In this document: piece by piece, positions 37,470-63,049 of the stretch
How positions within the stretch are numbered: position 1 is the first letter of the stretch
How the letters are laid out: every line of letters starts with the position of its first letter
Assembly: GCA_002269645.1 (NCBI GenBank)
Contig: NIVC01001280.1
Location: 186,001-250,000, forward strand
Source: Macrostomum lignano
Taxonomy: Eukaryota
Length of the DNA stretch: 64,000 bases
Direction: 5' to 3'
Program-made: the position numbers and the translations under genes
Notes under the pieces: model-generated
Database searches by the model: none
Told to the model about the DNA's origin: nothing
The model's input: only the letters and a program-made list of their open reading frames with translations

Positions 37470-40400
37470 CTACCAACGGTACACGCTTCCCGTGGGGGTG
37501 TTTTCGCGGGGCGACCCGCACAAATTGTTCCGGATCCACTCACACTCGTGATAAGATAGCGCAACCGACCGTGACCTGAATAAATATGTCCCACCTGCAC
37601 GCCACAATATCCGTGAGGACATTAAGGCCACCTTTAGCCCGGGCGTGATCATCCCTCGGCCCCCGCACCCTCATCGCAGGTGACCTCAACGCTCCCGCCA
37701 CCTGCTGGGACCCTATCAACGTGAGGACCAGCTAGGTAGTGCGATTAAAGAATGGACGACCAACTGCAGCCTGTCGATTCTCAATAACGGAGCCCACACC
37801 CGCCTTAATCCAGCGACCGGCGGGAAATCAACTCCCGACCTCTACATCGTCACGGCTGACTGGCCAGCCCGCGCCGACTGGTGTACTCTTGGAGGCATCG
37901 GCTCTGACCATCTACCGATAGTGGCCAACTTCGACGCCACCGACCCAGTCAAGCCAAAACACTAGCCGCCTCAACTTCAAAAAGGCCGACTGGCAGGCCT
38001 TTTGGACTTACCTTGACTCTAGACTGGCAAGAATTGAGAACCTGCTCAACTCTGTGCGCTGCTTTGCCGAACGCCGCAACCGCCTCATCAACAGGGCTCT
38101 GACCGGAGCGGCCCGCTCGGCCATCCCCTTTGGTAACGGCCCCCGCAAACAACAGCCCTTCTGGAATGAACGCTGCTAGAACGTCTTGATGACCCTGGAT
38201 AACATCCGCCTGTACTCTGATCTCACTCAAACAGGAGGCCACTCGAGTCATCAGAGAGCAAAAGAAAGCTCGACTTCCGCGAGCGGCTCAGCACGATGAG
38301 ACCGTATGGTGACATGTGGAGCTTCGATTAAACGCTTCGATGGGCGCATCCCCAGCTCCAAGCCGGCTGCAGCCTTCGAACGACCGGCCCACGGAAACAT
38401 TCCCCCGGCTAATCGACTCGCGGTTACAGCCCGAGAGAATGCGGAGCATTTCTGCGGAGCCTATGCGGAAGTCTAGAGAATTCCTAAGAACAAGACCGAG
38501 GACCGCCCCATCATGAGGCGCGCCGCGCAGTCTGCACAACTGCACCCGCTCTGAAATTTGTAGCTCGATATCTAACACTGAACTTGAGCTAACCATCAAA
38601 CAGCACAAAAACGGGAAAGCCCCAGGCCCAGATGACATCTGCAATGAGCTGCTACGCCAAGCCTCCCCGCTCGGAAAAAGCCGCCTCCTAGAACTAACTC
38701 ATCAATGATTGCTGGCACCACTCCTGCTGCTTGGAGGCGCGCCGAAATAATCGCTATCCACAAGAAAGGGAAAGACCCTGGACAGCCTGATTCGTACAGA
38801 CCAATCTTTCAGCTCAGCTGCATCGCCAAGTTAGCCAAGCGCAGCCTCCAGAACCGCCTGTTCCACTGGCTCGAATCACGCAACCTGTTCAACAAAAACA
38901 AGGCCGGTTTCCGCAAGGGCCACTCCACCATCGACCAACTGGCCCGCATTACCCAGGGCATATTCGATGCTCTTGAGCAAGGCAAGCCCGAACGCGCCAT
39001 CCTGATCCTTGTAGACTTCTGGACCGAGTTGGGCGATCTGGCCTGTACGCTAAAATGGCCAGGCTTGGCATCCCGGCCCATGTCATCGGCTTCGTCAAGA
39101 ATCTACTCTCAGACCGCCGCGCCACAGTTCGTTGGGACGGTACCTGCTCAAACTGGAGAGTTTTCACTGACGGCCTCCCCCAAGGATCGTTTTTTGCACC
39201 CCTCCTCTGGCTGATCTATGTCAATGATATCGACGACGGCCTCGACGACAGGGTGCTCCGATCCCTCTTCGCTGACGACACGGCAATCCTGATCACTGGC
39301 AGAAGCCTGGCAGAGTGTGCGTGGACCGCGCCCAGCCGGCTCTCGACGCCATCGTTAGCTGGACTTAACGCTGGAAAGTCCAGTTGAGCACCCATAAGTG
39401 CAGCTTCACCTCATTTACACTCAATCCAGCGGAGAGAGGCGGTAAAGTGCGTCCTGCGATCCGTATCAAGAACGAGCCCCTACGCCACGAAGCAGAACCT
39501 ACGTTCTTGTGTCTTAAGTTCGACGACCAGTTGACCTTTTCCAGCCACCTCGACTTGGTCAAATCCAAGATAGCAAATCGCCGCAACTGCCTGCTGGCCA
39601 TCGCAGGCAAACACTTCCGAGCTGCTTAACCGCCTACATCCGATCCATCTTCGACTATGGCTCTTCAATCTACTTCACCCATGCGGCCCTTACGAGCCGC
39701 CGCTACAAACTGGAAGCTAACAGAATAAATGCGCTCGCATCATTACGGGTTGCCATGGCATCACCAACAGGCGGACCCTGCTCGCGGAGGCTGGCCTACC
39801 TTCCCTAGTTCTCAGAGTGCTGAATCAGGCTGCTAGAGAATACGTAATTCAAGAGCAAAGCCGACCTGGAAACGGACCTCCCAGACGAAGATGTCCTGGA
39901 TCTGTCCTTCAAGCCATGCTTTCGGAGGATCAGCCAGTGGCTTATCAGCCTTGCTGTCGGACAACTGGTCCCAAAAAAGCTACCGGCACCTTTGCCACCG
40001 TGGATCCCCTTCCGAAAGAGGTCACCATCGCTACGGACCTGTGCAGAGCTTCGCGGCACTCGAATCCGGCTGCTGATAGACGCCAAGCGGCCATCGAGAC
40101 GATCGTCACCTCCCGCCAGCGGAGTGCACCATCTACACGGACGGCTCCTGCCAACCGGACGGCGCCGCCAGCGGCGGAGGAGCGATTTTCTCCTGGTTTG
40201 ACAGCCTCAAGACGATCTGCATCTCCACTGGCCGTTTCGGGAGTAGCACCACCGCCGAGCTATCTGCCATCATCGCCGCACTGAAATTCGTGACTGACGA
40301 CCCTGACCATCTGGTGGGAGCCACCCACAGGATTTATCTGTTCACCGACTCGCGCGTAGACCTCCTAATCATCTGCCGCGGCCCCCGGACTTTGGACTGT

Positions 40401-44200: not shown

Positions 44201-44535
44201 ACATAAAGTCAGACGCTTTTGCTAGATTTTCTAACTGGTTGTTGAATGCTTTAAAGTCAAGTCTGGTTCCATGGTACGGGCTTTGACCTTGGGTACACTG
44301 GCCTATTGACTCTGACAGTAAGACTAGCTTGCATTCTTTTGCAGCCTCTCCAAGGAGCCAATAGTAAGCGGCATATTCCTAGGGCAATTAGGCGATTTCC
44401 AATGCCAGTATCTACCCATCGAATGAAACCTGGCTACGAGCTTTCATAATTGACCGACGGATGGTGGCCACCAATGTTCTTTGACTTGTACAGCCGATTT
44501 GGGGTCAATAATGTAAGCTTTTCCCAATGTCTCAT

Positions 44536-44649
44536 CAGGGGCGGCGGTCGCCAGAAAAAAAGTCGAAGGGGGACCAAGCGAATTTTCGCTAAAATACAGA
44601 GCCACCCCCTCCGCCCCCTGGCTCCTTACTCTCCAGAATCCGCCCCCCT
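44536..44649. mobile_element. Possible short MITE remnant
   Basis: caggggcggcg ... gaatccgcccccct imperfect inverted ends; no clear TSD. Confidence 0.3.
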
Positions 44650-45929
44650 AAACAAATCTCTTGTTGCACTACTGTGTGTTATCCTTTATAAGTTTTTCTG
44701 AAGTGCACGAATATAAACAGGCTTTTTACTGCAATTTTAGTTGAAAAGATGACTGTTATAAAGTAGCTGTCGCTATCGAAATCTTAACTTTCCTTGGCCG
44801 CAGAGATGCAGCATCACATTTTATCAGAAACTTCTAAGGCCTTGCCTGTTTTTGTGCCCAATAATCTGTGCACACACTCAGTCAAGCAGCGTCTTGTCCT
44901 GCAGGCCTTTTGACACAGTACTGACAGTTTTACGATGCAAGGAACTTCTGACCAACGCTTGCCCCTATCATAGACGGGGAAAATTCCTTAGCCTTTTTCT
45001 TTCCTCAGTTGCTGTGAGCTTTCTTCGGAATCAGAGGACAGTTGCAGCCACAGAAACTACGGTTTTAGGGGTCGAATTGGAAAAAATGAATGCAGGGCAC
45101 TTAGCGAAACATTGTTTATAAATATTGGTTTCGGTATGCAATTTGTATGGATGCAGGTTTGAGGGAAGGCCTGGGGCTAGCCAAGTGGGTTGCGCCGGGA
45201 GAAATATGGGGGGATTTCCCGGGATTCGACTGACAGAATCCAGTGCACCGTGGTTACGGCACATAACCAAAGCTTCATCTATTCATCTGCAGAGGGAGAG
45301 TATCCACTGACTGAATCTGCGCATCTGTCTAAGTTAGTAGAAGATCGAAGGGTAGTGAATCCAAACATAGATCTTTGCAGAATCCAGTGACACGGAAGAT
45401 GAGCTCAATCCGTCAGTCTGTGCTTCCTTCAACCCAGATAGCATTCACGCCACCTTATTTTTCCTGACACATCTATGCATCGAAGTAAGCTCGTACTATA
45501 CATACATGTACTACATTTCTTTCGATACGGTACGAAATCCTGCTACAAAACCTGAGAGTGAAAATTACATTACAAAGCCATTCAAATGCTTGCGGATCCG
45601 GGCAAATTGGCAGCTGCCAGCTACACGGGAATCTCCAGCAAGTCGAACCACCAACTACCTGCTCGCTCCTTGCTTTGCTGCACCTGTTTGCATCCTAGGA
45701 ATTCCAGAACTCTGCACCCGTACCCCTCTCTCCACCAAGCTCTGTTACGAAAAGTTGCATTTTGATTCGAACCTGCACAAGTGTACCCAGACATAGGCGC
45801 AAACTAACACAGTGGGCTGCCTGTCTGTTGACTGACACAGCTGGCAAGTGCTTAATTGGGCACCACCACGTTGCCTCTACTACTACAGCCAGGCTGATGA
45901 ATTGGCGCCCTAGCGAATATTAATCATAT

Positions 45930-46030
45930 ACGCGCGACCAGTTCGAAGAAAATCGGTTCAGCCGTTTTTGCTAAAATCGAAGGCATATACCTACCTACCG
46001 ACAGACCATTTTTAGTATATGGACTGCTAG
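45930..46030 (+). mobile_element. Possible 3' part of a non-autonomous Helitron-like element
   Basis: aaaatcggttcagccgttt followed by a short ctac/acag microsatellite and ttttagtatat. This motif order is seen in Lep1/DINE-like elements; the evidence is weak. Confidence 0.3.
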
Positions 46031-48396
46031 TAAACTCGTACAGCTGAGATCTCAATGGCGGCTTAGAGTAGCTGCTGCACTCTTGCAATGTCTCGTACCT
46101 GTGGGCTACATTCTGGATGCGCAGCCATCTACTTCAGCATTTCAAGGGTATGCAACAACTTCCTCTTCAACACCCATCACTTCATCATAGTAGGCTTTGC
46201 TGCGCCGGAGAATCTTATGATTTCAATGCTACAACCCGCAGCTTATCTCTTCCAGCCTGCCTTACACTGCATCAGATGCCTGCAGCTGATAACAGAATGG
46301 CATTTCATGCAAAGAGTAACGGGTTTATTTAGCGGTCTTTTACGTTTCAGATGCCATCTACGAGTACTCGTGTGATGCCCTTTTTTCGAACTAATTAGCA
46401 TTCTTCGCTCGTTCGTAAGCTCGCAGCTTAATTATTTTATTTGTCATTAAATAGCAGGTTTCTGTAACCTAAAATCGGACTGACTATTCAGGTTCTCCAC
46501 GTTCTCCATTACTAGGCACACATGCTCTCGGAAGGCAATCAATCCAAGGGGCAAGGACACGTCTTCACCAAAACTGCGATTCAGTCTATCCTTACGCGAC
46601 TAGCGTAGTGCTGGGGATGACTCGGCACTGGACGTAACACGCTGTCACCAATGTGAAGACTGGAAACGTGTTTGCCAATAGTAGCAATTTGCCGGCTTAC
46701 AAGCCGAGACGCGTATATTCATCCTATCTATTGCGACAACCCCCGAAGACAACCCTTAATATATACACGCAAACCAGGGGGACACAGCGTAAACTGTGTC
46801 CCATTACTCTCTGCTCATGACATTAAATAGTCAGCGGGTTGCTGTAACCTTCAATCGGATTGAATTTACAGGTTGTCCACGTTTAATTGGTATCTGCTTC
46901 TGCGCTATATCTCCTATATGCAAGCAGTCCGACAGCCATCGATTCCAGTTTATTTTGCCTGGAGAAAACATTACAACACGGTTTCATTCCATAGCCTAAG
47001 TTGACATTTATTGATATACGAGCCATATAATTTTATTCAAAAGGCTTTAGTTTGCTTAGAGTCACTTATTCAACTTCGATTTATTCACGCTTAGATACCC
47101 CCGGTAGCCACTGTAATCAAGCATTGACGAGTGTTCGTTGGTGGATCAAACAGCTCGCTGTGGATAAATGGTAGATGAAGCCCAACAGCCATGCAGGCTG
47201 CGCGCAAGTTCCTGACCGCATCAGCTACCACCACGCGCCCGGCCTCGGATAGCCACGGGGTGCGAAGTCAAACGCGATTTAAGCACGGGACTGGGGCACT
47301 GGGGCCGGACCATTCTATATACCGTAGCCCCAAATGCACACCAGCTCCCACACAAACAGTTCTTCACCCCCCCCCAGCCCACTGGGTCTTTCCATCACCT
47401 CCAGTTTGCCTTTCGGTCTGGCAAACTTTGAGGGTGTTTTGGGGCTTTTAGGGGGGCTGCAACAGTTTCTTTCCTTGCTTCGTTCGTGTTCCTTAAAAAG
47501 TGACCAAAAATCTGTGTTTTCACAGTACGAATCGACCCAATAAAGTGGAAACCAGGAGAGAAATACACCTGTTTTTTTAGGGTTGATATTTCACTACCCT
47601 AACAAGAATCCGAACAATCAGGGGATCATTGCCCGCCACGAGCTCGGCTGGACTGAATTTGTGAGGTAAATAAATACAGTATTTATTAAGTACAGGCTGG
47701 GGAATAACGCGCTAAAGTGTATTCTGAATTCAGCGGATACTCGATCGAGTTGAGAGATTTTTGTGTCCGACCTCCTCCCCTCCCACTCAAATATATTCAC
47801 CGATTGACGAATCCTATGGAATTCCTATAGTCTGAGTAACTTCCTGATTTCTGACGATTCTGGATCATCAGGGCCATCATACTTGTGTCGGAGGAAAAGT
47901 AGCATCGAAAAGTATTCAGCTACTCCATCCATGTATCCCTGTACCCGAAGAATGTGCTTTGATTGGCCCGAGGCTTGAGTGAAGTCACTTATTGGATCTT
48001 GATTGGGATTTTCGAATTTTCTGCGATGCACACAGCAACTGATCAAGCATAGTCAGCATGGCTACGTTTGCTGAAGAAAGAATAATGGGCATTTTGGTGG
48101 GTTTATTTGAGATACTTATTTTGGCGAGAGAACCGGAAAATGAGATGATGAGATGAAATTGTTAAACGCTTTTGTAAGATTTTGGGCATTCTTATATTTC
48201 TAAAACAGCGTTAAAAATATAGTTTACGCTCTTGTATTATTTAAAGTAGCTCTAAAGGATAGCAATAAAGAAATTCGACCGGTGTATGCTTTAATTTAAA
48301 TAGTCGATTACGACTTTACAGGTCTAGCATTGGTGTCTGAACCTGAACCTGTCCTGCTTCTGCTAAAGTAACGGGCGTCAAATCGACAGTTCTCAC

Positions 48397-49136
48397 CTGG
48401 GAAAGTGACCACTGAGCTGCCAATTCCGGCCAGAGCTGGCGTCAAGCAGCAAAGAAAAGCCGAAGTAAAGGCTGGGTAGTCCGAGGAATCCCTGCATGAG
48501 CAGCAGCTGGCACAGACAGTTGATAATGTACAATAGCTTGTAGAAAAGGTACAGGGCAGAAAATCTGCTAGGGCACTTGCCCAGCTGGCTGTAGGTCGTG
48601 CTGCGGCCCAGTAGTGGCTCGACTTGTCTGCTCAATACCGCCACCCTCTGTGCCAGCCGTCCGGAGTCGCCAAGGCCATCACCATCCCAGTCCCGTGCGG
48701 CCTTTGCAGCCGTCTGCACTGCCGAGTGAAGTGGTTTGGCAGCAACTTTCCAGAATAGATGCGGCAAATAGAATCCCATGCTTTGCAGGCTGAGTACTAT
48801 CGGGACCCACTGATAATACGGCAGCACAGCCGACCGCCGCTCGTCCTGCAGCCTCGGTGGGCCCTCCTCAACTGGGCGCGAGGCATTGAAGTACGTGCCT
48901 TCCACCCAGCACAGGTTCTCGGCGTACTCCTCCCATGACTTATCAAACTCCTTCGGCACCCAGCACTGAATTGGTGTGAATACGTATTGCCGGACCCCCA
49001 CCACGCTAGCCAGGATGACGAAAAGGCTGGGGGTCAGGCGGGAACAGAGCCAGTCGAGGTCGTCTTCTGCTTTTAGCTGACCGCTAGCACCTAAGCCGAG
49101 AAGCCGCACCAAGGTGAGCAGAACTTCCGCTCCCAT
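48397..49136 (-). CDS. Innexin, exon 1 (N-terminus, TM1, EL1, TM2, loop, TM3); spliced product about 370 aa
   Basis: EDDLDWLCSRLT, PIQCWVP, YAENLCWV, the YYQWVP signature, GFYLPHLFWK, YLFYKLLYIIN and SGHFPR. An AG|GTGAGA phase-2 donor matches exon 2 (740+373=1113 nt). Confidence 0.95.
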
Positions 49137-50767
49137 GATAATACTGAGGTTCTCAGAACAGAAGTCGCAGAAAACAGTAATGACTGTATGTTTGGTAGCG
49201 TCAGTTCGGATCTCTCCGGATCCTTTCTCTATACCTCAGACAGCCCAGCAACTGATTGGTCTCGTGGTGGATCAACGGCGATTCCGATTCGCTGCGAGCT
49301 ACTGTCTACCCCAATGTTGTTTGGATGTGAATTTTCTGGTACTGGCAACTACTGGCGCTTCAAAAAATTGACCAATTCAGTGTGATTACTATTTAACTTG
49401 GGCTGAATTTCCTTGTTCAAAAAGGTTTGCAACGTTATTACCCTAGTAATAATATCGACGAATGTTACAAGTGCATAAACGTAAATATTGTAGAAAGGAA
49501 ATCAAAATCTATTTGCGGGGAGAATTACTCTAAAATCGAACGAGAAGTGTTTTGCAATCTTCTGGGGCCGCTCACCACTTATGACGCTACCTATCTTCTT
49601 CGCCTGCACATTTATCATCGCTACCGATCACCAGTTGTTTTTGCGCTTAGCCTCTGTTGACTGAGAGACCCTTTGTGAACATGTCTAGCCAGCTGACGAT
49701 TTGAGAATGGGTTTCGTTTTAGCATGCATTTTAACTGTGCATTTCTATTCGGCTTAAAACCGAAGCCTTTTTGTCGTCCACACAACTCTCACACCGACCA
49801 CATGGCTTTGTCTGTAACTTGGAAAGTCAATATATGAATAAAAGGGGTATTGCTCACTTTTTAAAGCAGTGATCAGACACATGTAGACGTGGGTCTTTGA
49901 GGACCCACGCCATCTCATCGTTGCCAACCAAGTAAGTGCGTTGCCCTTCCTGTCTTCTGTCAATCGGTTGCCAGAGGGAGTTGAAGATCCGAGTGTCCTG
50001 ACGCCGACCGAAGTAGACATATCAATACTGTATTGCTTCCTCCGTCCGCCAGCCAGTGCGTCCCGACGCCTCGCTGAAGGCGGCTGGCCTACACCACCGC
50101 GTCCCGCGCGTAGGAAGGCTGCGTGGGTGCGTCCTGACGCTCTGGACTTTGGGAGATTGCACGCACTCGCGCCTGGTCGCAGGCCGGCAAGAACCCGTAC
50201 TGTACTGAATATTTTAGCCTGTAGTACCTACCGTACTGCCTAGACCGGGCTGCAGGGATAGAACAACATGAGAGTAGCATAGAACACAGATCCCATATAC
50301 ACTATATGGGTCACTTGCAGAAAAACCTGTCCCTTTTTCATTGTTCGCTAAGTTTACTTTTTCGTCAAGTAACTTTCGGTTCCAAGGAAAGTAAGATAAC
50401 TTCCTGCACTTGTTCCGGTACCGGTACTTTAAAAAGTAGCTAAAGTAGCTAAAGTAAATAATCATAGCTTTCTTTTACTTCCGGTACCGGTTCTTTCTAA
50501 TTTAAAAGAACCACGAATTAGAAAGTGCTTAAGCTTTTCTTTGTGAAAAAACAAATAACGTGCGTTGGTCTAGAGTTATGCATACAATTATTCCTTAAAT
50601 AAAAATGCTGCATGATTTTTAAATATTATCGCATTTAGGTGAATTAACAAAACACGTTTTGAAAACAGGGACTAGCAGAATAACAGGACGCTACACTCAT
50701 GATCCTTGGAAAAGCTTTTTGAAAGCCGATTTTCAAATGTTGATTATGACTCTTTAGAAGTATGTAT

Positions 50768-51593
50768 TGTCACGTTATTGGCGTAGCGGCCAGCTATGCG
50801 GTGACCCTTAAAAGGGCCGTTTTAGTCCCAAAATAGTTGAAGTCAATTCTTGTAAAGCGGATTTTGTAGCGGAGCACTTGGCGATAAAGGCAGGAACTGC
50901 CGTAGTTGTCTTTATTGTTAATATCAGTATTAAGTTTGGTTGTTACTGGCAATAAACAGACTATAGCTTTCTGGGCACTGGCGGCTGCAGCAATGGGTTG
51001 AATATAATTTGGATATGAAGTCAAGTGGCAGGCGAATGACACAATGGCGACGTGACGTGAGCAGTGGCTATGAGCACCGTGAAGGCAGTGAAACGTAGTG
51101 GTGAGTAGGCGTCGGTCGTGGCGTGAAACAGTCAAGTAAGTGTGTGAGCAGGCTGGCCCAGACAGAAGGGCCGCGGTGAGAAATAAGGAGGCTCGAGGCA
51201 GCCAGACAAACAGATAAGACAGCTAAGAGGCCGCAGGGAAGGAAACAAGGAACAGGCGGGGAGAGACGAAAAAGCGTGAGGGGTGCCCGCCGCCAGGCGG
51301 GGGTTTAATAAAAGAGCGCAGAGGGGGGTAGCGCGAGCACGAGTGATTTCATTGGCTGGCGAGAGAACTTAAAATTATCGATCGTGCCAATTTTATACGG
51401 TTGCGAGAGAGGATAGCAAAATATACAATGAATTATAAATTGCCACAAAATCGTTGGGCACTACTACAAGTAAACGTCGCAATAAACGAATGGAAAAGTT
51501 TAGTTGAAACGGTGAAACTGAAGGGTTGAATGACTATGGAGAACAGCAGTCCAACGGCCCTTTTCGGGACCACCTTAAACTGACAACGTCACA
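50768..51593 (-). repeat. 3' LTR (826 bp)
   Basis: Matches 60215-61041 except for an A/G at 50923/60370 and one G in a G-run (differences found by eye). Confidence 0.97.
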
Positions 51594-51607
51594 CCCGCCT
51601 CCCTTCC
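51594..51607 (-). promoter_or_regulatory. Polypurine tract
   Basis: GGAAGGGAGGCGGG on the - strand, directly abutting the 3' LTR. Confidence 0.85.
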
Positions 51608-52086
51608 GAAAAAGGATAGGGTCGCGCAAAAAGAAAACCAACACGCGGGTCGACGGCAAGAAAAACACAACGTGACCGCAGTTTATGAAATTATAGCAGA
51701 GTGAATTACAGTGGGGTTGAGTCAGTTTGTATGAGCATATGATTACCGGACAAAATTACAAAGTTCCAAAGGCTACAGACGATTACGAGAGCAGAACATT
51801 ACAGGGCAGTAGAACACGGTGAGCACGAGCAATACAACATGGTGGTGTTACAAAAACATTACAAAATACAACAATGGTTACGGAAAGTAGTGCACGACGG
51901 AGCGCGCGGCGCGTGCGAACACAAAAACGACAAAGGACGCGCAGAAGTGATACGATGGATGAGGCAAACACAGAACAAGGATGACAAGGTGGATGAGGCA
52001 AAGGATGCAGAGCAGAGGCACGGAACAGAGGCACAGTCCGGACAACTGCGGGCAAACGACGCCAAGCGTCAAGGGCGGCGGGACAC

Positions 52087-52376
52087 GGCGCGGCGCGCCA
52101 AGGCGGAAGGGAGAACCGGCGCAAGAGCGCCCAAGGCGGAGACACGGCGCAGCGCGCCAAGGCAGAGACGGCGCAATGCGCCAGGCGGAGAACGGCGCAG
52201 CGCGCCAAGGCAAAGACGGCGCAGCGCGCCAGGCAGGAACGGCGCCACGCGCCAAGGCAGGAAACGGCGCAAGGGCGCCACGCGGGAACGGCGCCACGCG
52301 CCAAACAGAGGACGGCGCCACGCGCCAGGCAGAGGGTGGCGCCACGCGCCAGAGGCAGAGGATGGCGCTACGCGCC
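52087..52376. repeat. Minisatellite of about 24 bp, about 12 units, each containing a GGCGC-N3/4-GCGCC palindrome
   Basis: Units start at 52087, 52117, 52146, 52170, 52194, 52218, 52241, 52266, 52290, 52314, 52338 and 52364. Confidence 0.9.
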
Positions 52377-53550
52377 AAAGGCAGAGAGAGCGTGCGTGCG
52401 GTGTGTGTGTGTGTAGTGCTTACTTTTACCCCACAAGAATTATATATATCTAGCTACATTATGAAATTTGCGAAATTTAATGATCAATTGCAGTTGATTT
52501 TTGAAGTAAACGACGCTGACCTGATCAGCCAGCTGCGCAGCGTTACGCTGCACTCGTCAATGAGCTGACCAGGGTCGCGCTGCACTGAGCTAGCTATGTT
52601 CCTATATGCATTTTTTCGAGTTTTCAATGGTTGCTTTTTCAGTTTTTATTTTCCTTTTTGAGTTATTTATGCGTTTCACTCGTCGCCAGTAGGTATGTTT
52701 TAATTACTAACCGTATATTGCACATTATATGGTTTCGGGGTATTACTATTAGCGTCAGAGATGACGCACTTATTCATTTCATCGACTTTGGCAACACCGA
52801 ACGGGTGCCATTGCTATCAATTATTTTAATCATTTTTGCCATTGCTATAATGTTTATACGTGCCCTAGTGTATTTTATCGATTATGGCAACGCCGATGCA
52901 GGCAGAGGACGTCTACAGAATATTTTGACAACTAATATATTTATAGTATTCATCTCGTAATCATTTTTCGACCAATATATGCATTATTTTATGCCATATT
53001 TATGCATTAATTTTTTAGTTTACTTTTGAATATTTGAGCTAAGGCTAATGTCTTATCTACTATTTGTTTCTAGCGCCGTAGTGTATTCTATAGACTACGG
53101 CAACGCCGACCAGGTGCAGTCGGAGTTGGGTGCTGCGATATTATATATATTCTTGCGTTAGAACAATATAGTATTTATACTGTCGGCATATTATGCTAAT
53201 TCTGCTAGTGTTTTATTTTTATTTTATTTATTTTAGCTAGCTATATAAATTATCAAATTGCAATGTCGCCGCAGTTTATCCCCTTGACTACGGTGGTTGG
53301 CTGTTGGCTGGTACAGCTGTGGAAGTTGTGCACACTAGTATCTGGCAGTGAGTAACAGCTGTGGCTTGTGTTTTGTGGCTTGCGGCTGGCAGATGCCGCA
53401 GGGACCTGTGACCAACAGGTGCCACAGGAGGTAGTTTAACGCCTTGCCCGGGGCGTGAGCTTGCGGTCTACAGGTGCCGCAGAGACCTGTGGCTGACAGG
53501 TGCCACAGGAGGTAGTTTTACGCCTTGCCCGGGGCGTGAAAAACTGGCGG

Positions 53551-56500
53551 TTAGTGTCTGCTTCCCCACTGCTGGAGCAGGTCGGACACTTGACAGGTCC
53601 GGTACCTGACAGGCGGGCGGATGGGGCGTCCGTACCTGGATCTGGGTACGTCAGCCGGGGCTGGTGGCTCAGCTGCTTGCGCAGCGACTGGATTCGCAGC
53701 AATCTCAGGTGGTTCTAATTGCTCGGAGGAAGGGTCCCCCAAGGAAGCCGTGTACAGCGACTCTGAGCTGTCTTGGCTGTGGCTGGTGTCAGTGTCTGTG
53801 CTGTCAGTGTCAGTGTCTGGTTGTGGCTGTCCCTCAATAGCTACAGCATCGCCAGCTTCGGCGAATGGTTGGCCTTCTCCCGCTTCAGCTCCCGCCCCCT
53901 CCTCAAAGGCGCCTGAAGCTGGCGGTGGTGGATTTGGCCCTGGCGCTCTGCGTGGGCTCTCTGGCCGGGCAGAGGAAGGCTGGGGAATGGTGACGAGGCT
54001 AAGCTCGCTCGCGGGTCCGCTGGGCGGGTTCACACTAGGCGCTGGAGACCTGGCATGGGTGGCCTCACCATACCGGTCAACTACGTCTTGGTAAGTGGGC
54101 TGTCTGATGCACGGTTTGAGGCGGTCAATGTTGTAAATGTTATGGCGCGGATTTGGCACCCGATCTGCTGGGTTTAGGAGACCATACTCGGGGACTAAAC
54201 GGTAAGTCCGCTCGGAGCAGCGCTGCACTACTCGGTATGGCCCCAACCACACAGCGGGTTCTATGCCCTTGTGGTTCGGGTTCAAGACCCAGACTAACTC
54301 TCCCTCGTGGAACTCAGCGCGGAGGGCGCGGCGGTCGTAATACCTTTTCTGCCTCTCCTGGGCTTTACCCCTAGTGCGGCGGGCTAGGGCAGAGGTTTCG
54401 ACTAGCGTGCGGTGCAACTGGTGGGCGTACCTCTCCGGCTGGTAGTGTTCATTTGGCGGTGGATTGTGACAGAGGTCGAGCGGTAGTTCGAACTCACGCC
54501 CGAAGAAAAGTTTGGCTGGAGTAAATCCGGTGGATTCGGCGACTGTGGCACGGATTGACAGGGCGGCCAGGCGGCTGGCAAGGGGCCAGTCGCATTGTCT
54601 CTCAAGACAGATGGCTCTAATCTGGGCTTTCACCGTCTGGATCATCCTCTCAGCTTTACCGTTAGCCTGAGGGCGACGGGCTGTGATCCGACCCATGTCA
54701 ATCTGTAGGAGCCTAGTTAATTCTATCATGGTACTATTGATGAAGGCAGTTCCGTTATCAGACACCAGCTGCTCCATCACCCCATACCTGGCAACCCATT
54801 CAGTCAGGATGGTTGTGGCAGTGGTCTCTGCGCTGACGTCGGGAACAGGGACTACTTCAACAAACCCGGTGAACCTGTCGATCATAACCAGCAGGTACTT
54901 GTACCCGTCACACTCTTCGAACGGGCCTGCGTGGTCCACGTGGACAACCTGGTTCGGGTAGCCGGACAGTTCTGGTTGCATAGGGGCCTTGAGCTTACGC
55001 TTTGACTTCTTAGTCTTAGCGCAAACGGTGCATTCGGCCAGGACCCCCTTGACTATAGTATCTAAGTCGGAAATAACGAAGCGCGCCTTCAGGGCGGCCA
55101 TCGTCTTGGTGATACCGCAATGGTTCAACTGGCCATGATACTGAAGGACCAGATGACCGACGTCTGCGGTCTCAGGCACCACCAGGCGCCTGTTGGCAGT
55201 CTTGGCTTTGGAGGATTTGGCTAAGTACAATAGACCCTCGACTACTTCAAGGTCATTGAATTGAGCCCAGAGTGCGCGCATTTCCCGGCTACAACCCTGC
55301 AGTTCGGCCTTGGACAATGGCTCAGTCTTACACTGGACACTGGCGATTAGGCGCGCCATGTCAACACAGGAGTCCTGGGCATTCTGGGCCCAGATGAGCT
55401 CAGGTGGCACTTGGGATTCGGTGTCAGGTTGACGGGATTCAGTCTCTGGGCTAGGAACAGCACCGCTAGCAGTAGCGCGGACATTCGGCGTTGGTTCAGC
55501 CGGGGCATCTGTGTCAGTCTGACACGCTACGCTAATGCCTATGGTCTGGACGCACACCTGACGCAGTTCTCTAGAGGGGGGCGTACGCCGGTGCTTTGGG
55601 TCTTGGTCCAGGAATTTCCCTTTAAATTCCGGAATCTGGCTGCACGTCGGGCAGTCAAAGTGATCGGCTCTGAATTTTGGCAGTCTACTAAGAGCGTCAG
55701 CAGGCACGTGGTCAACGCCTGGACGGTACTGGACTGTGAAATCGTATTCGGCTATTCGTTCTAGAGTGGACTGCTGGACCTTCAGCGGGTACAGTTCAAT
55801 GGTGGCAAGCCATTGGGCCAGCATACCAGTGGCATGCTTCTTAGAATGCAGCCATTTGAGCGCGGCCGCGTCCACCCGGACAGTGAAAGGCTTGTCTAAT
55901 AGATAAGGACGGAAATGCTCGAGCATCAGAACGAGCCCTAGCAACTCCCTCATGGTGGCGCAGTAGTTTCTCTGGCTACTGTTGAATTTTTTGGATGCGT
56001 AAGCTATAACTTGCTCTTGGCCATCTGGCCCGAGCTGGTACAGCACACCCCCAGTGCCGTCAAGCGAGCTATCGCAGTCCAAAATAAATTCGCGCCCTTT
56101 GGCAGAGAGGTCTGGATACGCCAGAATCGGTGGTGAACAGAGGCTATGTTTGAGTTCTTGGAAAGCCCGTTCATGATGCGGTTGCCATAGAAACGGAGCA
56201 TCCTTTTTGGCTAAGGCATACAAAGGCGTGGCGATGATTGAGAATCGCGGCACGAATTTCCGGTAATAATTCGCAAATCCCAAGAATGATAGAAGCTGTT
56301 TCTTAGAAAGCGGTTTAGGCCAGTCTTGGACAGCCTGAGTCTTCGCTGGGTCAGCCTCAATGCCCCGGCTAGACACAACGAACCCCAGGAATGCGACCTT
56401 GTCCTTAAACAGCTCACACTTAGACGGCTTAATTTTGAGACCGGCTTTTCTAAGCTGCCAGAGGACCAGCGCGAGATGCGCGATCATTTGGTCGTTGTTG

Positions 56501-59316
56501 ACAGCCTTAATGATAATGTCGTCTAAATAGATGAGGCTGACCTTCATCAGGAGAGGTCTAAACACCTTGTGCATCAGTTTCGCGAAATTGGCAGGTGCCG
56601 TCTTGATCCCGAATGGTACTACCTTCCAGCGGAAGGTGCCTTGGGGGCAGGCAAAGGCGGTGTAATCTCTAGCCTCCTCTTTGATCCCTACCTGCCAGTA
56701 CGCGGAGGTCAGGTCAAGGCTAGAGAATACAGTGGCCCCGGCAAGGCTGTCAAAAGATTCTTCTATGAGTGGCAGAGGGAAGCTACACGGCTTGATGAGC
56801 TTATTGACGGCCCTATAGTCTATGCAAAGGCGTTGAGTGCCGTCCTTCTTCTTGACCAGAACGATAGGCGACACCCAGTCAGAGTCGCACTCCTCAATGA
56901 CCCCCTGTTCGAGCATCTGCGCTATGTTCTGGTCTAAGAATTCTTTTTGTGCTGGCGTGGTGCGCCTGTATGGTTGCGCAACAGGCTTGGCCTTAGGATC
57001 TATTAACTCTATGCCCATCTCGTGTAAATTGGTGTGGCCTAAATCTGCGTTTGATCTAGAAATTTGGCTATTGAAGTAGTTGAGCAGTTTCAAAACGGTG
57101 GCGAGTTGGCCCCTAGACAATTTGGCTTGGTCTAGTTGGAACTGCGTTGTCAGCCATTTGGCTAACTCCCTACTAGGCGGCGGCAGCTTACTGAGTTGGC
57201 TGGTGAGGTTAGCTACATTGTCCAGGCTAAAGTCAGACTCCTTCAGGGTCGTCTGAGCTATGACCTCATGACTATCTAATTCCTGGAATGAGGCAATTTC
57301 TTGCCCCCTAGTTATCTGAATAGGCTGTTCCCCACTGTTGAGCACGCGCACTAGTATGTGGTTAGTATCGCTAACTGAGTCTAGAGTCTTGGCTACCAAC
57401 TGTTCGGTCTCTGGTCCGAGGATCCGGGACATGACTATACCGGAGGTGTACGGCGAAGAGTCGAGGACACGACTGGGGATCAAGGTTTCCGAGTGCGGGG
57501 GCAATTCTACGGTGCCGGCGGCCATCACTCGTCGGAGTTGGAAAATCCCCTTGTCCCCCTCAATGACTGGTACCGACACCCCTGCTACTAAAGCTCGGCC
57601 AGAGTTGAAGTCTAGCAGCATCTCGAAGCTGCGCAGGAAATCCATGCCTAACAGGGCTTCCGTGGTACAGTAAGCAGTGACTAGGAATACATGTTGTTTA
57701 GTCGTATTACCTAAGTTGATTTCGCAGCGTAGCGACCCTAGGATGTCTACCTGAGAGCCGCCGAAGGCGGTGGCACGCTGCTTATTGGCACTAGGCGTGA
57801 ATATGTTATTGACGGGGTCAGCTGCGACCAGTTTGGCTTTCACGTCAGCACCCATGATGCTGGCATTGGCGCCTGAGTCTAGACAGGCCAGAACTTTAGA
57901 GTCTCCTACTCCTAGCTGCACGAAATAGCTAGACTCAAAGGTGTCAGCTGTGTACCCCCCTTGTCGGCATTGTGGATCACTGTCCCCTGGCTGAGGTTGC
58001 ACATTACAGGCCTTGTCGTGCTGGCGCCCGGGGTCGACCTGGCGCTGGAATTTCACCCTAGTCCCCCTAAGGCGGTGCTGCTCGACTAGGCTACGCAGGC
58101 TGGGAGACAGTTGGCTAATGTGAACGAACAATTTCTCTGGCAGGTGCTCAGATTGGATGAACCCGTAATTCTGAGACCATGTGGCAATGGTTCCTAGTTC
58201 AGTCGTGACTTTTCCACGGCTGGGCTGCTGATTTTGGCTCCCCCGGGGCTGCTTTGGCGACTGTGGCCTCGGCGAGGGCGATGGACAGTCAGCGATCAGG
58301 TGATCGGTCTGGCCGCATCGATGGCAAGCCCGCGGAGGGCGAGGAGCTGGCCTAGGTTGTCTATAGGTTTGGCTAACTTGTGGTGGGCCCCCAGTGGGCT
58401 CTGTGCGAGCGGGCCCCTGATTGGTAGTGACAGGCGGAGTGGTCTGGCTTAATCTATTGGCTTGGTCGGTCACCATCTTCTCAAGCTCAGCGACCCTCTG
58501 TTCTAACGCTTTCTTCTCAGCGTCAGGTTCTATGGCACGAACCTTGGCTATAGTAGGAGGCACGTTCAGAAGCTGGCGGACCCCGACAAGATCTTTGGCC
58601 TTCTGCATCAGCTCTTCTGCAGAGGTGGCACTGTCGGTTTCCTGATCCCATAAGAGGAGCTTTTCGGCGAGGTCCTTATCCCTCAGCCCATGGCAGAATC
58701 TGGCCTTGAGTAGGGGCTTCGCTTCAGCGAGCGAGAGACCCGCTAGTCTAGAATAGGAGACCAGTCTGTCGAAGAAATCAGACATCTGCTCATTATGAGA
58801 TTGGGCGGCAGCAACTAATTCTACGTAGGCCTTGTCCTTCTTCTTGGCATCGGTGTACCTTTCCCTGAGCAGCCGAAGCGCAGATTCGAAAGGCAACTGG
58901 TCACACCGGTAATTAAGATATACCTCTTGGCATTCGGCTGACAGCAAAGATACGAGAATGGCGGACTTCTGGTCCTCAGGAACGCGGCAAGTGGCTAGAT
59001 ACGAAGTAAGCTGAGCTTCCCACGTATCAAAGTTCATCTTCGGCTGATAAGCGATTGGAGGGCGAAGGCGTATGTCTGGCTTCGCAGGCGGCGAGGAATT
59101 TGGCGCTAATGGCGAGGAAACAGCGAGACGCTCTTCGAGCATCCGGTGAAGAGAGGCTAAGGTTTGAGTCAACAAGAGTTGCTCACTAGGAGCTGGCGCG
59201 GCGGCAGCAGCTGCGCCTGCTGGCTGCTCGCCGGCATCGACTGCGTCCTGATCTGGCACGGCGGCATCTCCGTCAGCCAATGACGCTGCGGCATGGTTGT
59301 CCCCGTTGTCGGACAT
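53551..59316 (-). CDS. Gag-Pol polyprotein: capsid, CCHC knuckle, cold-shock domain, aspartic protease, RT, RNase H, integrase with GPY/F and an acidic/Pro-rich tail
   Basis: CHRCGQTDHLIADC (aa331-344); CSD aa372-441; LACLDSGA; WVSPIVLVKKKDGTQRLCIDYR; IYLDDIII; LDCDSS; HHCC integrase finger; VHVDHAGP, LVSDNG, PQANGKAERM; WLGPYRV. Confidence 0.95.
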   Translation of the reverse strand: MSDNGDNHAAASLADGDAAVPDQDAVDAGEQPAGAAAAAAPAPSEQLLLTQTLASLHRMLEERLAVSSPLAPNSSPPAKPDIRLRPPIAYQPKMNFDTWEAQLTSYLATCRVPEDQKSAILVSLLSAECQEVYLNYRCDQLPFESALRLLRERYTDAKKKDKAYVELVAAAQSHNEQMSDFFDRLVSYSRLAGLSLAEAKPLLKARFCHGLRDKDLAEKLLLWDQETDSATSAEELMQKAKDLVGVRQLLNVPPTIAKVRAIEPDAEKKALEQRVAELEKMVTDQANRLSQTTPPVTTNQGPARTEPTGGPPQVSQTYRQPRPAPRPPRACHRCGQTDHLIADCPSPSPRPQSPKQPRGSQNQQPSRGKVTTELGTIATWSQNYGFIQSEHLPEKLFVHISQLSPSLRSLVEQHRLRGTRVKFQRQVDPGRQHDKACNVQPQPGDSDPQCRQGGYTADTFESSYFVQLGVGDSKVLACLDSGANASIMGADVKAKLVAADPVNNIFTPSANKQRATAFGGSQVDILGSLRCEINLGNTTKQHVFLVTAYCTTEALLGMDFLRSFEMLLDFNSGRALVAGVSVPVIEGDKGIFQLRRVMAAGTVELPPHSETLIPSRVLDSSPYTSGIVMSRILGPETEQLVAKTLDSVSDTNHILVRVLNSGEQPIQITRGQEIASFQELDSHEVIAQTTLKESDFSLDNVANLTSQLSKLPPPSRELAKWLTTQFQLDQAKLSRGQLATVLKLLNYFNSQISRSNADLGHTNLHEMGIELIDPKAKPVAQPYRRTTPAQKEFLDQNIAQMLEQGVIEECDSDWVSPIVLVKKKDGTQRLCIDYRAVNKLIKPCSFPLPLIEESFDSLAGATVFSSLDLTSAYWQVGIKEEARDYTAFACPQGTFRWKVVPFGIKTAPANFAKLMHKVFRPLLMKVSLIYLDDIIIKAVNNDQMIAHLALVLWQLRKAGLKIKPSKCELFKDKVAFLGFVVSSRGIEADPAKTQAVQDWPKPLSKKQLLSFLGFANYYRKFVPRFSIIATPLYALAKKDAPFLWQPHHERAFQELKHSLCSPPILAYPDLSAKGREFILDCDSSLDGTGGVLYQLGPDGQEQVIAYASKKFNSSQRNYCATMRELLGLVLMLEHFRPYLLDKPFTVRVDAAALKWLHSKKHATGMLAQWLATIELYPLKVQQSTLERIAEYDFTVQYRPGVDHVPADALSRLPKFRADHFDCPTCSQIPEFKGKFLDQDPKHRRTPPSRELRQVCVQTIGISVACQTDTDAPAEPTPNVRATASGAVPSPETESRQPDTESQVPPELIWAQNAQDSCVDMARLIASVQCKTEPLSKAELQGCSREMRALWAQFNDLEVVEGLLYLAKSSKAKTANRRLVVPETADVGHLVLQYHGQLNHCGITKTMAALKARFVISDLDTIVKGVLAECTVCAKTKKSKRKLKAPMQPELSGYPNQVVHVDHAGPFEECDGYKYLLVMIDRFTGFVEVVPVPDVSAETTATTILTEWVARYGVMEQLVSDNGTAFINSTMIELTRLLQIDMGRITARRPQANGKAERMIQTVKAQIRAICLERQCDWPLASRLAALSIRATVAESTGFTPAKLFFGREFELPLDLCHNPPPNEHYQPERYAHQLHRTLVETSALARRTRGKAQERQKRYYDRRALRAEFHEGELVWVLNPNHKGIEPAVWLGPYRVVQRCSERTYRLVPEYGLLNPADRVPNPRHNIYNIDRLKPCIRQPTYQDVVDRYGEATHARSPAPSVNPPSGPASELSLVTIPQPSSARPESPRRAPGPNPPPPASGAFEEGAGAEAGEGQPFAEAGDAVAIEGQPQPDTDTDSTDTDTSHSQDSSESLYTASLGDPSSEQLEPPEIAANPVAAQAAEPPAPADVPRSRYGRPIRPPVRYRTCQVSDLLQQWGSRH

Positions 59317-59706
59317 TGTGTAAGGTTGAGTGAGACAAATGAATCAAGCGTGAACGAAAATAAGGCTCCAGAGAAAACGAATTGAGGTTGATGACGCGAG
59401 AGAGACGAGAGAGATTGCGTCCTACTAACAAAATACGTGCCTGACAGGGGCAAACCGCAAAAAGCCTATAATAGGGGAGAGTCCTATCACGCAAACCACC
59501 CAGACTAACTGTCAGGCAATAGTCCCTACAAACAATCAGCGCACAGCGTAACCTGGCGTGGCTTGGCACACGCAGCGGAGCTATCTTGGCAGAGCGTAAG
59601 CTCGAGCTCAACGCAGTTGACAGCGCGCGTTGCTCAGGGCGACGACCAGCGACGACTCGCGGCGACGAGCGAAGACCGGCCGAGCAGTCAGGACCCCTGG
59701 GCCTGA

Positions 59707-59861
59707 CGTGGCACAGGCTCTCGTAGCCTTGCGGACCGAACCTCAGGCGTGGCACAGGCTCTCGCAGCCTTGCGGACCGAACCTCAGGCGTGGCACAGGC
59801 TCTCGTAGCCTTGCGGACCGAACCTCAGGCGTGGCACAGGCTCTCGCAGCCTTGCGGACCG
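59707..59861. repeat. 41-bp tandem repeat, about 4 copies, in the 5' leader of the Gypsy element
   Basis: cgtggcacaggctctcg(t/c)agccttgcggaccgaacctcagg at 59707, 59748, 59789 and 59830. Confidence 0.9.
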
Positions 59862-60013
59862 TCAGGCAGAAACGTGGCAGGCCGGCACTCAGTCACGAGC
59901 CGGCAGAGCTGAGCAGAATCTTGCTGACGCTTGGTTGCGAGCTGGCAGGGCTGAGCAGAAGTCTTGATGGCGCTGATTACGAGCTGGCAGGGCTGAGCAG
60001 AAGTCTTGATGGC

Positions 60014-60200
60014 ACTGACTTAGTTGCGAGCCGGCAGTGCTGAGTAGGAGTCTCGGTGGTGCTGACTTAGTTGCGAGCCGGCAGTGCTGAGTAGGAGTCT
60101 CGGTGGTGCTGACTTAGTTGCGAGCCGGCAGTGCTGAGTAGGAGTCTCGGTGGTGCTGACTTAGTTGCGAGCCGGCAGTGCTGAGTAGGAGTCTCGGTGG
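60014..60200. repeat. 47-bp tandem repeat, 4 copies, overlapping the PBS
   Basis: gacttagttgcgagccggcagtgctgagtaggagtctcggtggtgct at 60017, 60064, 60111 and 60158. Confidence 0.95.
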
Positions 60201-60208
60201 GACCTCCA
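60189..60208 (-). promoter_or_regulatory. Primer-binding site complementary to the tRNA-Gln 3' end
   Basis: The - strand reads TGGAGGTCCCACCGAGACTC, starting 6 nt after the 5' LTR. It is complementary to ...UCUCGGUGGGACCU-CCA of eukaryotic tRNA-Gln (tRNA sequence recalled from memory). Confidence 0.85.
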
Positions 60209-60214
60209 AAATTA

Positions 60215-61041
60215 TGTCACGTTATTGGCGTAGCGGCCAGCTATGCGGTGACCCTTAAAAGGGCCGTTTTAGTCCCAAAATAGTTGAAGTCAATTCTTGT
60301 AAAGCGGATTTTGTAGCGGAGCACTTGGCGATAAAGGCAGGAACTGCCGTAGTTGTCTTTATTGTTAATGTCAGTATTAAGTTTGGTTGTTACTGGCAAT
60401 AAACAGACTATAGCTTTCTGGGCACTGGCGGCTGCAGCAATGGGTTGAATATAATTTGGATATGAAGTCAAGTGGCAGGCGAATGACACAATGGCGACGT
60501 GACGTGAGCAGTGGCTATGAGCACCGTGAAGGCAGTGAAACGTAGTGGTGAGTAGGCGTCGGTCGTGGCGTGAAACAGTCAAGTAAGTGTGTGAGCAGGC
60601 TGGCCCAGACAGAAGGGCCGCGGTGAGAAATAAGGAGGCTCGAGGCAGCCAGACAAACAGATAAGACAGCTAAGAGGCCGCAGGGAAGGAAACAAGGAAC
60701 AGGCGGGGAGAGACGAAAAAGCGTGAGGGGTGCCCGCCGCCAGGCGGGGGGTTTAATAAAAGAGCGCAGAGGGGGGTAGCGCGAGCACGAGTGATTTCAT
60801 TGGCTGGCGAGAGAACTTAAAATTATCGATCGTGCCAATTTTATACGGTTGCGAGAGAGGATAGCAAAATATACAATGAATTATAAATTGCCACAAAATC
60901 GTTGGGCACTACTACAAGTAAACGTCGCAATAAACGAATGGAAAAGTTTAGTTGAAACGGTGAAACTGAAGGGTTGAATGACTATGGAGAACAGCAGTCC
61001 AACGGCCCTTTTCGGGACCACCTTAAACTGACAACGTCACA
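60215..61041 (-). repeat. 5' LTR (827 bp)
   Basis: tgtcacg...cgtcaca followed by the gtat TSD. Confidence 0.97.
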
Positions 61042-63049
61042 GTATGCTCGTATGGACATAACTTTTGGCTTATAGTTGTGTCACAATGTGTAGAATACTT
61101 CAGCCAGCTTTCAGTTTGTGTGGGTCGTTTTTCGTTGCTCTACTGTGTTGAGTTTTACAGCATCTATACTATTACAGTATAAGTATACTTTTATACTGCT
61201 GACTCATTTAGAATCTATGATTATCTTCTGGAAGTCTTGGAAATGCCAGGTAACAACTAATAAAAAGGATACCAGGACAACAAACTGCTGCAATTTTTCG
61301 AAAAAGTGCACAATAGAGAAATTTAATTTACCCAAACGAGTTAAAAGTCATCCTGCACAGACGAAAATCGAAATGGAGAAATAATCCTTTAGAACATTTT
61401 TTCACGAATGCATCTGGATAGCGTCCTGATATACTACTGCTGGTGCAGTGGTCCTGTTAGAATATTTGCAAGAACTCGGTAAACAACGATTTTTATAGTT
61501 TTTAGCGTGTCTTGTTGCTGAATGAGTTGGGTTAAACGAAACAATTTATAAGCAAAAGAAACTAAAGCACAAATGGAGAATACTTTTCAATCCTTAAAGA
61601 AATTTTAATTGCACACCATTTTGGGGCCGCAAAGTTTAGTTTACAGAGCCTCAAAGCCTAAAAAAGATTTCTCTGTGACGAAGTTGTAGGCCTACTTTTC
61701 TTTTGCTGACGTTGATGAGGTGTCTAGCGGTCTATCAGGATTTACAGTACATGTAGAGAATAAGTAGTAATGAACTAAGCGAATTACAAGGAGCTGTCGA
61801 AATACTGTCGAACTATTCAATATATTTATCTGTTAAAAGTATTAGAGCCAGTACAAAGCCAAGAGCGACGAGCGACAAACCAGACTACTCCTACCACTAC
61901 CAGACAACCAGCTTGGGGCGAAATTCAAAACGTTTTTATAGTAATTTGAAATTTGAGTATAAAGATTTAAACAAAGGAGTGTAAACTTAATCTACTTAAC
62001 GTGTCAAACAATACGTGCAGATGTACAATTAAATAGAATAATTAAATACCAATCACAACAACGGCAAACGACCTAAAAAAGCTCACACCGTCACATCTCA
62101 ATTAAATATTTTTTGTATTTCACTGAAGTTGTCATTCTGTTAACTTTTTAAAGTAATTACCAAAATTTTTTTATTTGTTTCTATGATGCTTAAAATTTGC
62201 TTTAACTTAAAAGTAAAAGCCGCACGATCCTATCATATCTTTTCAACTTTGTATAGTTATATTTTGGTGAAAGCTTTGCACTATTGAGAAATATTTAGTA
62301 ATGGTGGCAGTTTAGCACCAAATTTTAATTTTCAAGCACCGGAAGTATCGGGTTTATCAAAAATTAACTTCCGTTACCTAACTTCCGTTACCGTCCAGTC
62401 AGTCCAAAAAATCGGAAAAGGCCGCTCTTAAAAAAGTAACCTCTGGTACTAAAAGCGTCGGAAGTGCTGGAACTTTGCCCAACACTGCCTTTTCACTGTC
62501 TATGGTTGGAAACACGAGCAGCAGAGATCGGAAGGCGGCAGGAGAAAAGTTAAATGCTTTTAGCCAATACGTAAAGTAAGCCAGTCCATCAACATTTTCT
62601 CGATTACAGTAATGCTGCCACAGAGAGCATGGGTAACAAACACGGTGCTCGTAATTTTTTGCACACGTCCGCAAGCAAGAATGCCGTGAAAGAATCTGTC
62701 TATGTCGTTATTGTCACCTTTTGTTGTTGCCGGATTTCTAGTCAATTCTTCTGTCTAGTGCACGTTGGAAGAGCAGTAAAGATAATCATCCAATCGTCTA
62801 TATGGTAATCGGAAAGGACAGTAAAGGCGACTAACCTAACTGTCATAAATTAATTCTTTATGGATTTTGAGCTTTTTTTTCGAAATAGAAAAAGGAGCTA
62901 TTATTCGCTAAGAAAAAATTCCTAGCTGAGAAATATGTGGACTCTCCACGGAGAAGTTGGTTGGCTTTTGTCACACGAGAGTCAAGCAATCGCTTTGTTC
63001 TGGAGATTAACAATTTGGATGCGTCGTCCAATACCAAAGTGCTGCTTGA

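Follow-up and report, generated by a model that had tools for sequence, protein, structure and literature searches.

The flatworm Macrostomum lignano carries, within a 64,000-nt stretch of contig NIVC01001280.1 (positions 186,001 to 250,000 of the forward strand; hereafter the window), a complete Ty3/Gypsy retrotransposon (50768–61041, minus strand) whose Gag-Pol open reading frame (ORF) contains a cold-shock domain (CSD) between its single CCHC zinc knuckle and its protease. This CSD is a family-wide trait, kept by purifying selection at a fixed in-frame slot, and a second Gypsy lineage of the same genome carries a CSD in another arrangement, behind a predicted frameshift site. A first-pass annotation of the window had placed the domain, the knuckle and the protease DSG motif of this intact frame at amino acids (aa) 372–441, 331–344 and 480, respectively, and all three positions are exact (Table 1). 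The window element and its close relatives are referred to as lineage 1.

A cold-shock domain kept by purifying selection

The segment aa372–441 is confirmed as a genuine CSD. Pfam PF00313 matches it with 36.8 bits (E 3.6e-9; cut-off 27) over profile positions 3–64 of 66 and is the sole Pfam family to match this stretch, with YGFI at aa384–387 and LFVH at aa396–399 forming the ribonucleoprotein motifs RNP1 and RNP2. An AlphaFold2 model built from a 10-row alignment (predicted local distance difference test, pLDDT, 88) has five strands and one helix, a predicted five-stranded OB barrel as the first-pass annotation had expected; modelling without an alignment gave a poor result (pLDDT 53.5). All 44 matches listed by Foldseek are cold-shock-type domains, the best being Drosophila Unr CSD1 (4qqb chain X; TM score 0.73, root-mean-square deviation 2.1), and a PDB search with a ten-sequence family profile returned UNR domains first (E 2e-7) and bacterial and Y-box CSDs next. 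The model had no match at E ≤ 0.001 in a viral fold library. The earlier claim that the spacing follows that of CSDE1 CSD1 holds for the short first hairpin, which the two share, but not for the stretch from the FxH motif to the VxF strand, where the element has 21 residues and arthropod UNR CSD1 has 16; the predicted helix sits in this 5-residue longer loop. The element CSD is, moreover, single.

By motif, the residues of the RNA face are the counterparts of Lin28b W39, F46, F48, F66 and H68, and mutants of Lin28b W39, F48, F66 and H68 are impaired in RNA remodelling (PMC3424542; statements on this and all other papers cited here refer to the portions of them drawn on). Positions G385, F386, F397 and H399 are identical in seven of seven subfamilies and W380 in six, and position 384 varies among Y, F and H. 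Conservation extends beyond the RNP motifs to L403, L407, H414, R425, D428, D434 and A436. By these residues, the RNA-binding face is intact, and binding to single strands is predicted.

A genome search with the CSD gave 114 matches among 117 candidates (24 identical, the others down to 36% identity), which are not to be equated with copy numbers. Thirty of the 114 loci, picked to span the identity classes, were examined: all have the CSD, 27 have an in-frame upstream knuckle, and 29 have a knuckle somewhere in the locus. The lineage 1 loci form about eight subfamilies with reverse transcriptases (RTs) 72%–100% identical, and PF00313 matches all eight domains taken from other subfamilies, five of them above the cut-off. 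Averaged over seven subfamilies, identity reaches 0.46 in the CSD, 0.47 in the capsid, 0.53 in the protease, and 0.81 in the RT, and falls to 0.13 and 0.14 in the linkers flanking the CSD. Silent sites are saturated between subfamilies. The dN/dS of the CSD is 0.14 both for the window copy against L047 (14 of 163 replacement sites, 20 of 47 silent sites) and for L044 against L055, the latter close to saturation; these are the two informative pairs, a third having two differences only. The domain is thus neither neutral nor absent from the family, the two outcomes that would have spoken against the original proposal. None of the loci examined represents a young, intact lineage 1 subfamily missing the CSD alone. 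An apparent loss in five RT-bearing lineage 1 loci (L081, L096, L097, L099, and L100) was rejected, since gag and protease are also missing from the stretch examined, and these loci are truncations.

Four sequencing runs, presumed to be RNA though not recorded as such, were compared with 44500–59600. Contigs span the ORF, as single 5.9-kb contigs in two runs; three of the four also cover part of a neighbouring innexin exon, and none shows a splice-type joint within the ORF. This hints at an unspliced family transcript, from runs that are only presumed RNA and among which the source copy is indistinguishable. One contig, from run X7, omits 5900 nt (53460–59361, the whole ORF) without splice-type ends and is probably a non-autonomous deletion derivative. 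Within the ORF, the capsid is followed by a conserved cleavage-like motif and the protease is likely preceded by another; knuckle and CSD have no evident motif of this kind between them (all of these being inferred sites). In lineage 1, knuckle and CSD are therefore probably released together as a basic nucleocapsid (NC)-CSD product of ~190 residues.

A second lineage and the number of captures

Scanning the genome with PF00313 revealed a second Gypsy lineage (lineage 2), with an RT 45%–46% identical to that of the window element. Its CSD is only 21% identical to that of lineage 1 (PF00313, 33.1 bits; 39 matches among 43 candidates). Here, gag stops just past the knuckle, the overlapping pol frame starts with the CSD, and ~150 residues, with weak coiled-coil-type matches, separate it from the protease. 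In 18 of 19 loci, a TTTAAAC heptamer and a GC hairpin lie upstream of the CSD where gag and pol overlap, with pol in the −1 frame. Representative loci are L121:7314-7547 and 7607-8848 (G000:C2907) and L061 (G000:C530). Inspection by eye suggests a possible pseudoknot between the GGGAG of the hairpin loop and a CTCCC farther downstream. Because the CSD lies downstream of the predicted −1 shift site and gag ends before it, the domain is probably made solely on frameshifted Gag-Pol and absent from Gag. The idea of an extended nucleocapsid, put forward in the first-pass annotation, therefore suits lineage 1, in which no splice was seen and knuckle and CSD probably share one product, but not lineage 2.

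The two CSDs have in common an E-x-G start, the 21-residue loop, and a VxFxRxxD motif, and the aromatic and histidine positions of the RNA face are the best conserved in both. They differ in the first hairpin, which is UNR-like in lineage 1 and CspA/Y-box-like in lineage 2.

Both lineages also carry an insertion of 11–16 residues at the end of RNase H (55747–55797 in the window), which 17 of the 29 rows in the comparison lack. An alignment of RT, RNase H and integrase without the insert columns places the two lineages and six proteins from other sources in one clade (100/100 support); under a mixture model with a quick search, support is 99, with long branches. Members of this insertion clade also occur in metagenomes. 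Four of its proteins (P0317, P0425, P0346, and P0352) extend at least 180 residues ahead of the protease and have no CSD, while the sequences of P0229 and P0310 start at the protease, so that the CSD region lies outside them. Topology tests rejected a grouping of lineage 1 with the CSD-less proteins (approximately unbiased test, p-AU 0.021), but neither lineage 2 with that group (p-AU 0.26) nor the two CSD lineages together (0.40). In the CSD tree itself, lineages 1 and 2 stand apart, with common origin not rejected (p-AU 0.32). A single capture serving both lineages is judged somewhat probable, and two separate captures are a real, if lesser, possibility. More tentatively, the slot between nucleocapsid and protease may be a repeated landing site, having received a UNR-like CSD and one with a CspA/Y-box-type first hairpin independently, both then selected; the domain would be a convergent RNA-chaperone part, needed only at Gag-Pol levels.

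The insertion clade groups at 91/98 with the M. lignano family Mlig-id38, without any of the named reference elements in the tree. Identity of the window element with Mlig-id38 was considered and rejected, the LTR motif of that family mapping to other loci. Protein P0310, from a metagenome-assembled genome named 'Kangiellaceae bacterium', matches lineage 2 at 72% identity across RT, RNase H, and integrase; it probably stems from animal DNA binned with a bacterium, which would point to lineage 2 in another host.

As to the donor, the UNR profile scores 24–48 bits on lineage 1 CSDs, against 6–12 for Y-box, 15–21 for bacterial, and 18–35 for a tandem-CSD protein. UNR domains are the best matches in both sequence and fold; the CSD tree, on 70 columns only, nevertheless joins lineage 1 to no UNR domain and places it beside a host CARHSP-like protein (91/80). 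The element CSD is ~29% identical to the first UNR domain of the host and far from every host CSD. A UNR gene is thus a candidate donor, as the best match, yet one that the tree does not join. Host CSD genes, labelled by motif, presumably comprise UNR-like, CARHSP-like and Lin28-like genes, the last having a knuckle downstream of the CSD exon, together with five or more Y-box paralogues, at L070 (G000:C3334), L073, L074/L075, L077, and L123–L128. Two further proteins, P0093 and P0141, consist of 11 and 5 tandem CSDs, and those of P0141 share the G-x-I-x-x-W-x-x-x-aromatic-G-F spacing with the lineage 1 CSD.

What the domain may do

The reading preferred here, which is given an even chance, is that the CSD is a captured host-type module acting in cis as an RNA chaperone for packaging or primer annealing. 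The domain would attach to unpaired stretches of the RNA of the element itself and loosen their structure, allowing the single knuckle to grip the RNA and the tRNA primer to anneal. This role is favoured because the CSD of Lin28, which serves as the model, melts RNA so that its knuckles can bind (PMC3424542). In lineage 1, the NC-CSD product would carry both parts. Because the lineage 2 CSD is probably restricted to frameshifted Gag-Pol, its task there would be one needing few copies per particle, such as loading Gag-Pol on RNA or priming, rather than coating of the genome. A precedent of a kind is the betaretroviral G-patch, a binder of single-stranded nucleic acid that is important for infectivity (PMC4322301).

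Several observations weigh against this account. The residue at the spacing of Lin28b F77, which is essential for RNA remodelling (PMC3424542), is not aromatic in the element CSD. In the closest pair (window and L047), the upstream linker has a dN/dS of 0.17, near the 0.14 of the CSD. The lineage 2 hairpin is no more stable than shuffled sequences (z 0.12), and the frameshift is only predicted. The host already holds the Y-box, UNR, Lin28-like and CARHSP-like genes listed above, leaving the need for a private copy unexplained. Finally, M. lignano also has young, intact Gypsy families that lack a CSD, so the domain is not a general requirement.

UNR acts in translation, and the CSD might instead set the translation or stability of its own mRNA in a UNR-like manner, via the repeat-rich leader or the frameshift region, and so adjust the Gag-Pol level. 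That its best matches are UNR domains fits such a role, as do the tandem arrays of the ~870-nt leader and the organisation of lineage 1, a single ORF with no splice in the four presumed-RNA runs and hence no obvious control of protein ratios. UNR, however, has several CSDs in a row (five were scored per protein), a lone domain attached to a capsid precursor is in a better position to serve assembly, and lineage 2 keeps its CSD despite a conventional frameshift signal; control of translation is thus considered unlikely. Counter-defence, whereby the CSD protects the RNA against silencing by small RNAs or acts as a competitor of host CSD proteins, would accord with the repeated rise of CSDs in retroelements (46 bird endogenous retroviruses, ERVs; PMC12287698) and with the action of host YB-1 on HIV RNA metabolism (PMC6040738), two cases of contact between CSD proteins and the RNA of retroelements, but is improbable given a dN/dS of 0.14 and an invariant RNA face, with no sign of positive selection.

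Marginally less probable again is a folded spacer or protein-interaction module that does not bind RNA and serves, for example, to time protease activation. The extra helix, the conserved residues outside the RNP motifs, and the ~150 residues with weak coiled-coil-type matches that follow the lineage 2 CSD are all compatible with it; the most conserved positions in both lineages are, however, the aromatic and histidine residues of the RNA face. In 9 rows of ~46, the bird ERV CSDs resemble neutral passengers (pieces of host genes yet to decay), with host-like scores and scattered positions (PMC12287698). For the present element, a neutral passenger is contradicted by a single in-frame position held across silent-saturated subfamilies in which both linkers have diverged, and by the distance from every host CSD, making this explanation very improbable indeed.

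The element, its neighbourhood and its place among known systems

The ORF encodes, in order, capsid, one CCHC knuckle, CSD, protease, RT, RNase H, and integrase (Table 1). Long terminal repeats (LTRs), primer site, polypurine tract, target-site duplication, and the order PR-RT-RH-INT (protease, RT, RNase H, integrase) mark the element as Ty3/Gypsy. Its insertion is very recent, because the LTRs are near-identical, differing by a single substitution and a 1-nt indel, and have a 4-nt target-site duplication on either side (50764–50767 and 61042–61045). The tRNA-Gln primer named in the first-pass annotation is borne out: 17 nt of the primer site agree with the end of the host tRNA-Gln gene and the last three are CCA, with all four host loci examined that show the tRNA-arm pattern called tRNA-Gln. 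Twelve nt of the site recur inside each 47-nt leader repeat, giving three partial extra copies that adjoin the true one (60024–60211). The element lacks an errantivirus-like (env-bearing) organisation, the longest ATG-started frame on its strand between pol and the 3′ LTR (51594–53550) being 25 codons, and no canonical heat-shock element was found in the LTR. A spacer of 185 residues between protease and RT (57007–57561) is conserved like the protease (0.53) and has no match in Pfam or PDB; we take it to resemble the dUTPase-like spacer of related elements. Elsewhere, the window holds a Sec7/BIG-type exon of 1584 uninterrupted codons (4252–9006), a PRP39-like exon (1679–2311), the innexin exon, 1.6 kb from the element (48393–49136), and an RT fragment (38705–39214).

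Table 1. Parts of the retrotransposon, in window coordinates
Feature	Position	Strand	Basis
5′ LTR, 827 nt, TG...CA ends	60215–61041	−	direct repeat of 50768–51593
Primer-binding site, 20 nt, 6 nt from LTR	60189–60208	−	complementary to 3′ end of host tRNA-Gln(CTG)
Leader, ~870 nt, tandem arrays of 47-nt and 41-nt units	59317–60188	−	repeat families D3, D5, D6
Single Gag-Pol ORF, 1921 aa, uninterrupted	53551–59316	−	open reading frame and Pfam
Capsid region, aa85–245, PNMA-like	58582–59064	−	Pfam PNMA E 1.8e-5, 24.7 bits, slightly below cut-off 25
Single CCHC zinc knuckle, aa331–344	58285–58326	−	Pfam zf-CCHC 20.8 bits, at cut-off
Cold-shock domain, aa372–441	57994–58203	−	Pfam CSD PF00313, AlphaFold2 model, Foldseek
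Aspartic protease, aa461–585, DSG at aa480	57562–57936	−	motif; Pfam Asp_protease families E 6e-4 to 2e-3, under cut-offs
Reverse transcriptase core, YLDD at aa930	56377–56856	−	Pfam RVT_1 E 1e-35
RNase H with 15-residue insertion near end (clade marker)	55747–56187	−	Pfam RT_RNaseH E 4e-28 and alignment
Integrase zinc-binding and core domains	54670–55155	−	Pfam Integrase_H2C2 and rve
Polypurine tract adjoining 3′ LTR	51594–51607	−	sequence
3′ LTR, 826 nt	50768–51593	−	direct repeat of 5′ LTR; 4-nt target duplication outside

The 26 M. lignano loci examined from other Gypsy families are all free of a CSD. HMMER searches with aa1–759 against 1.84 billion representatives gave two matches below 1e-30, both from the window family; the only other CSD carriers among the best 150 of 570 matches are two proteins with CSDs in tandem, the examined part of which has no element domains. 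A CSD is likewise lacking from 117 RT-RNase H relatives of other origin, 112 further proteins, and 80 metagenome loci (39 showing knuckle and protease motifs), a negative that is partial as many outside relatives begin at the protease. IMG/VR yielded no relative with the CSD alignment or P0310, and GTDB none with P0310. The ESM Atlas gave, for lineage 1, nothing but knuckle/protease clusters at ≤0.80 and, for lineage 2, no usable match; neither result amounts to absence.

The open-licence literature (PMC, bioRxiv) contains no report that we found of a Gypsy element with a CSD, in line with the first-pass annotation; the novelty is nevertheless narrower than claimed there, CSDs having been reported at varying positions in 46 bird ERVs (PMC12287698). 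These share with the present element a PF00313 domain within an LTR retroelement, acquired more than once. In the nine rows drawn on, their CSDs have host-like scores (E 1e-11 to 1e-25) and are never placed between knuckle and protease where both are listed, whereas the M. lignano CSD belongs to Ty3/Gypsy, holds one fixed in-frame slot, is strongly diverged, and is under purifying selection. The Gmr1/Osvaldo cluster of the same species (PMC12801592) includes Mlig-id38; the portion of that 2025 survey consulted names protease, RT, RNase H, and integrase only, and 'cold' and 'CSD' occur 0 times in its text and supplements.

Host-type modules fixed beside the protease are familiar from betaretroviruses, as G-patch and dUTPase-Pro (PMC4322301, PMC1224870). 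The dUTPase, N-terminal of the protease, occupies the same slot as the CSD (PMC1224870), while the G-patch is C-terminal; both are other folds in another virus family. Gypsy lineages, too, have stably gained host-type domains, as in the chromodomain, orchid AlkB, and planarian Burro cases (PMC9289625, PMC6431247); all of these domains are other than CSDs, and the word 'cold' is absent from both main texts. Lin28, like the element, has a CSD and a CCHC knuckle in one chain, ~25 residues apart (PMC3424542). The suggestion of a Lin28-type module in reverse thus holds for the order, Lin28 having its CSD first and the element its own knuckle; the element, however, has one knuckle rather than two and no special Lin28 likeness, with no Lin28 entry among the listed sequence and fold matches of its CSD.

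Host-domain capture by LTR elements is hence known, but a fixed, selected Gypsy CSD in two arrangements is new to the literature covered. Stable domain gains by LTR retrotransposons are rare, and each has revealed a step of the interplay between host and element. This one puts an RNA-binding fold at the Gag-Pol junction, kept through a deep radiation, and offers a natural comparison within one genome: the CSD with every Gag in lineage 1, probably with Gag-Pol only in lineage 2, and not at all in close CSD-less families. As M. lignano is a tractable laboratory flatworm, the role of the CSD, a question raised for the bird ERVs, can be addressed there.

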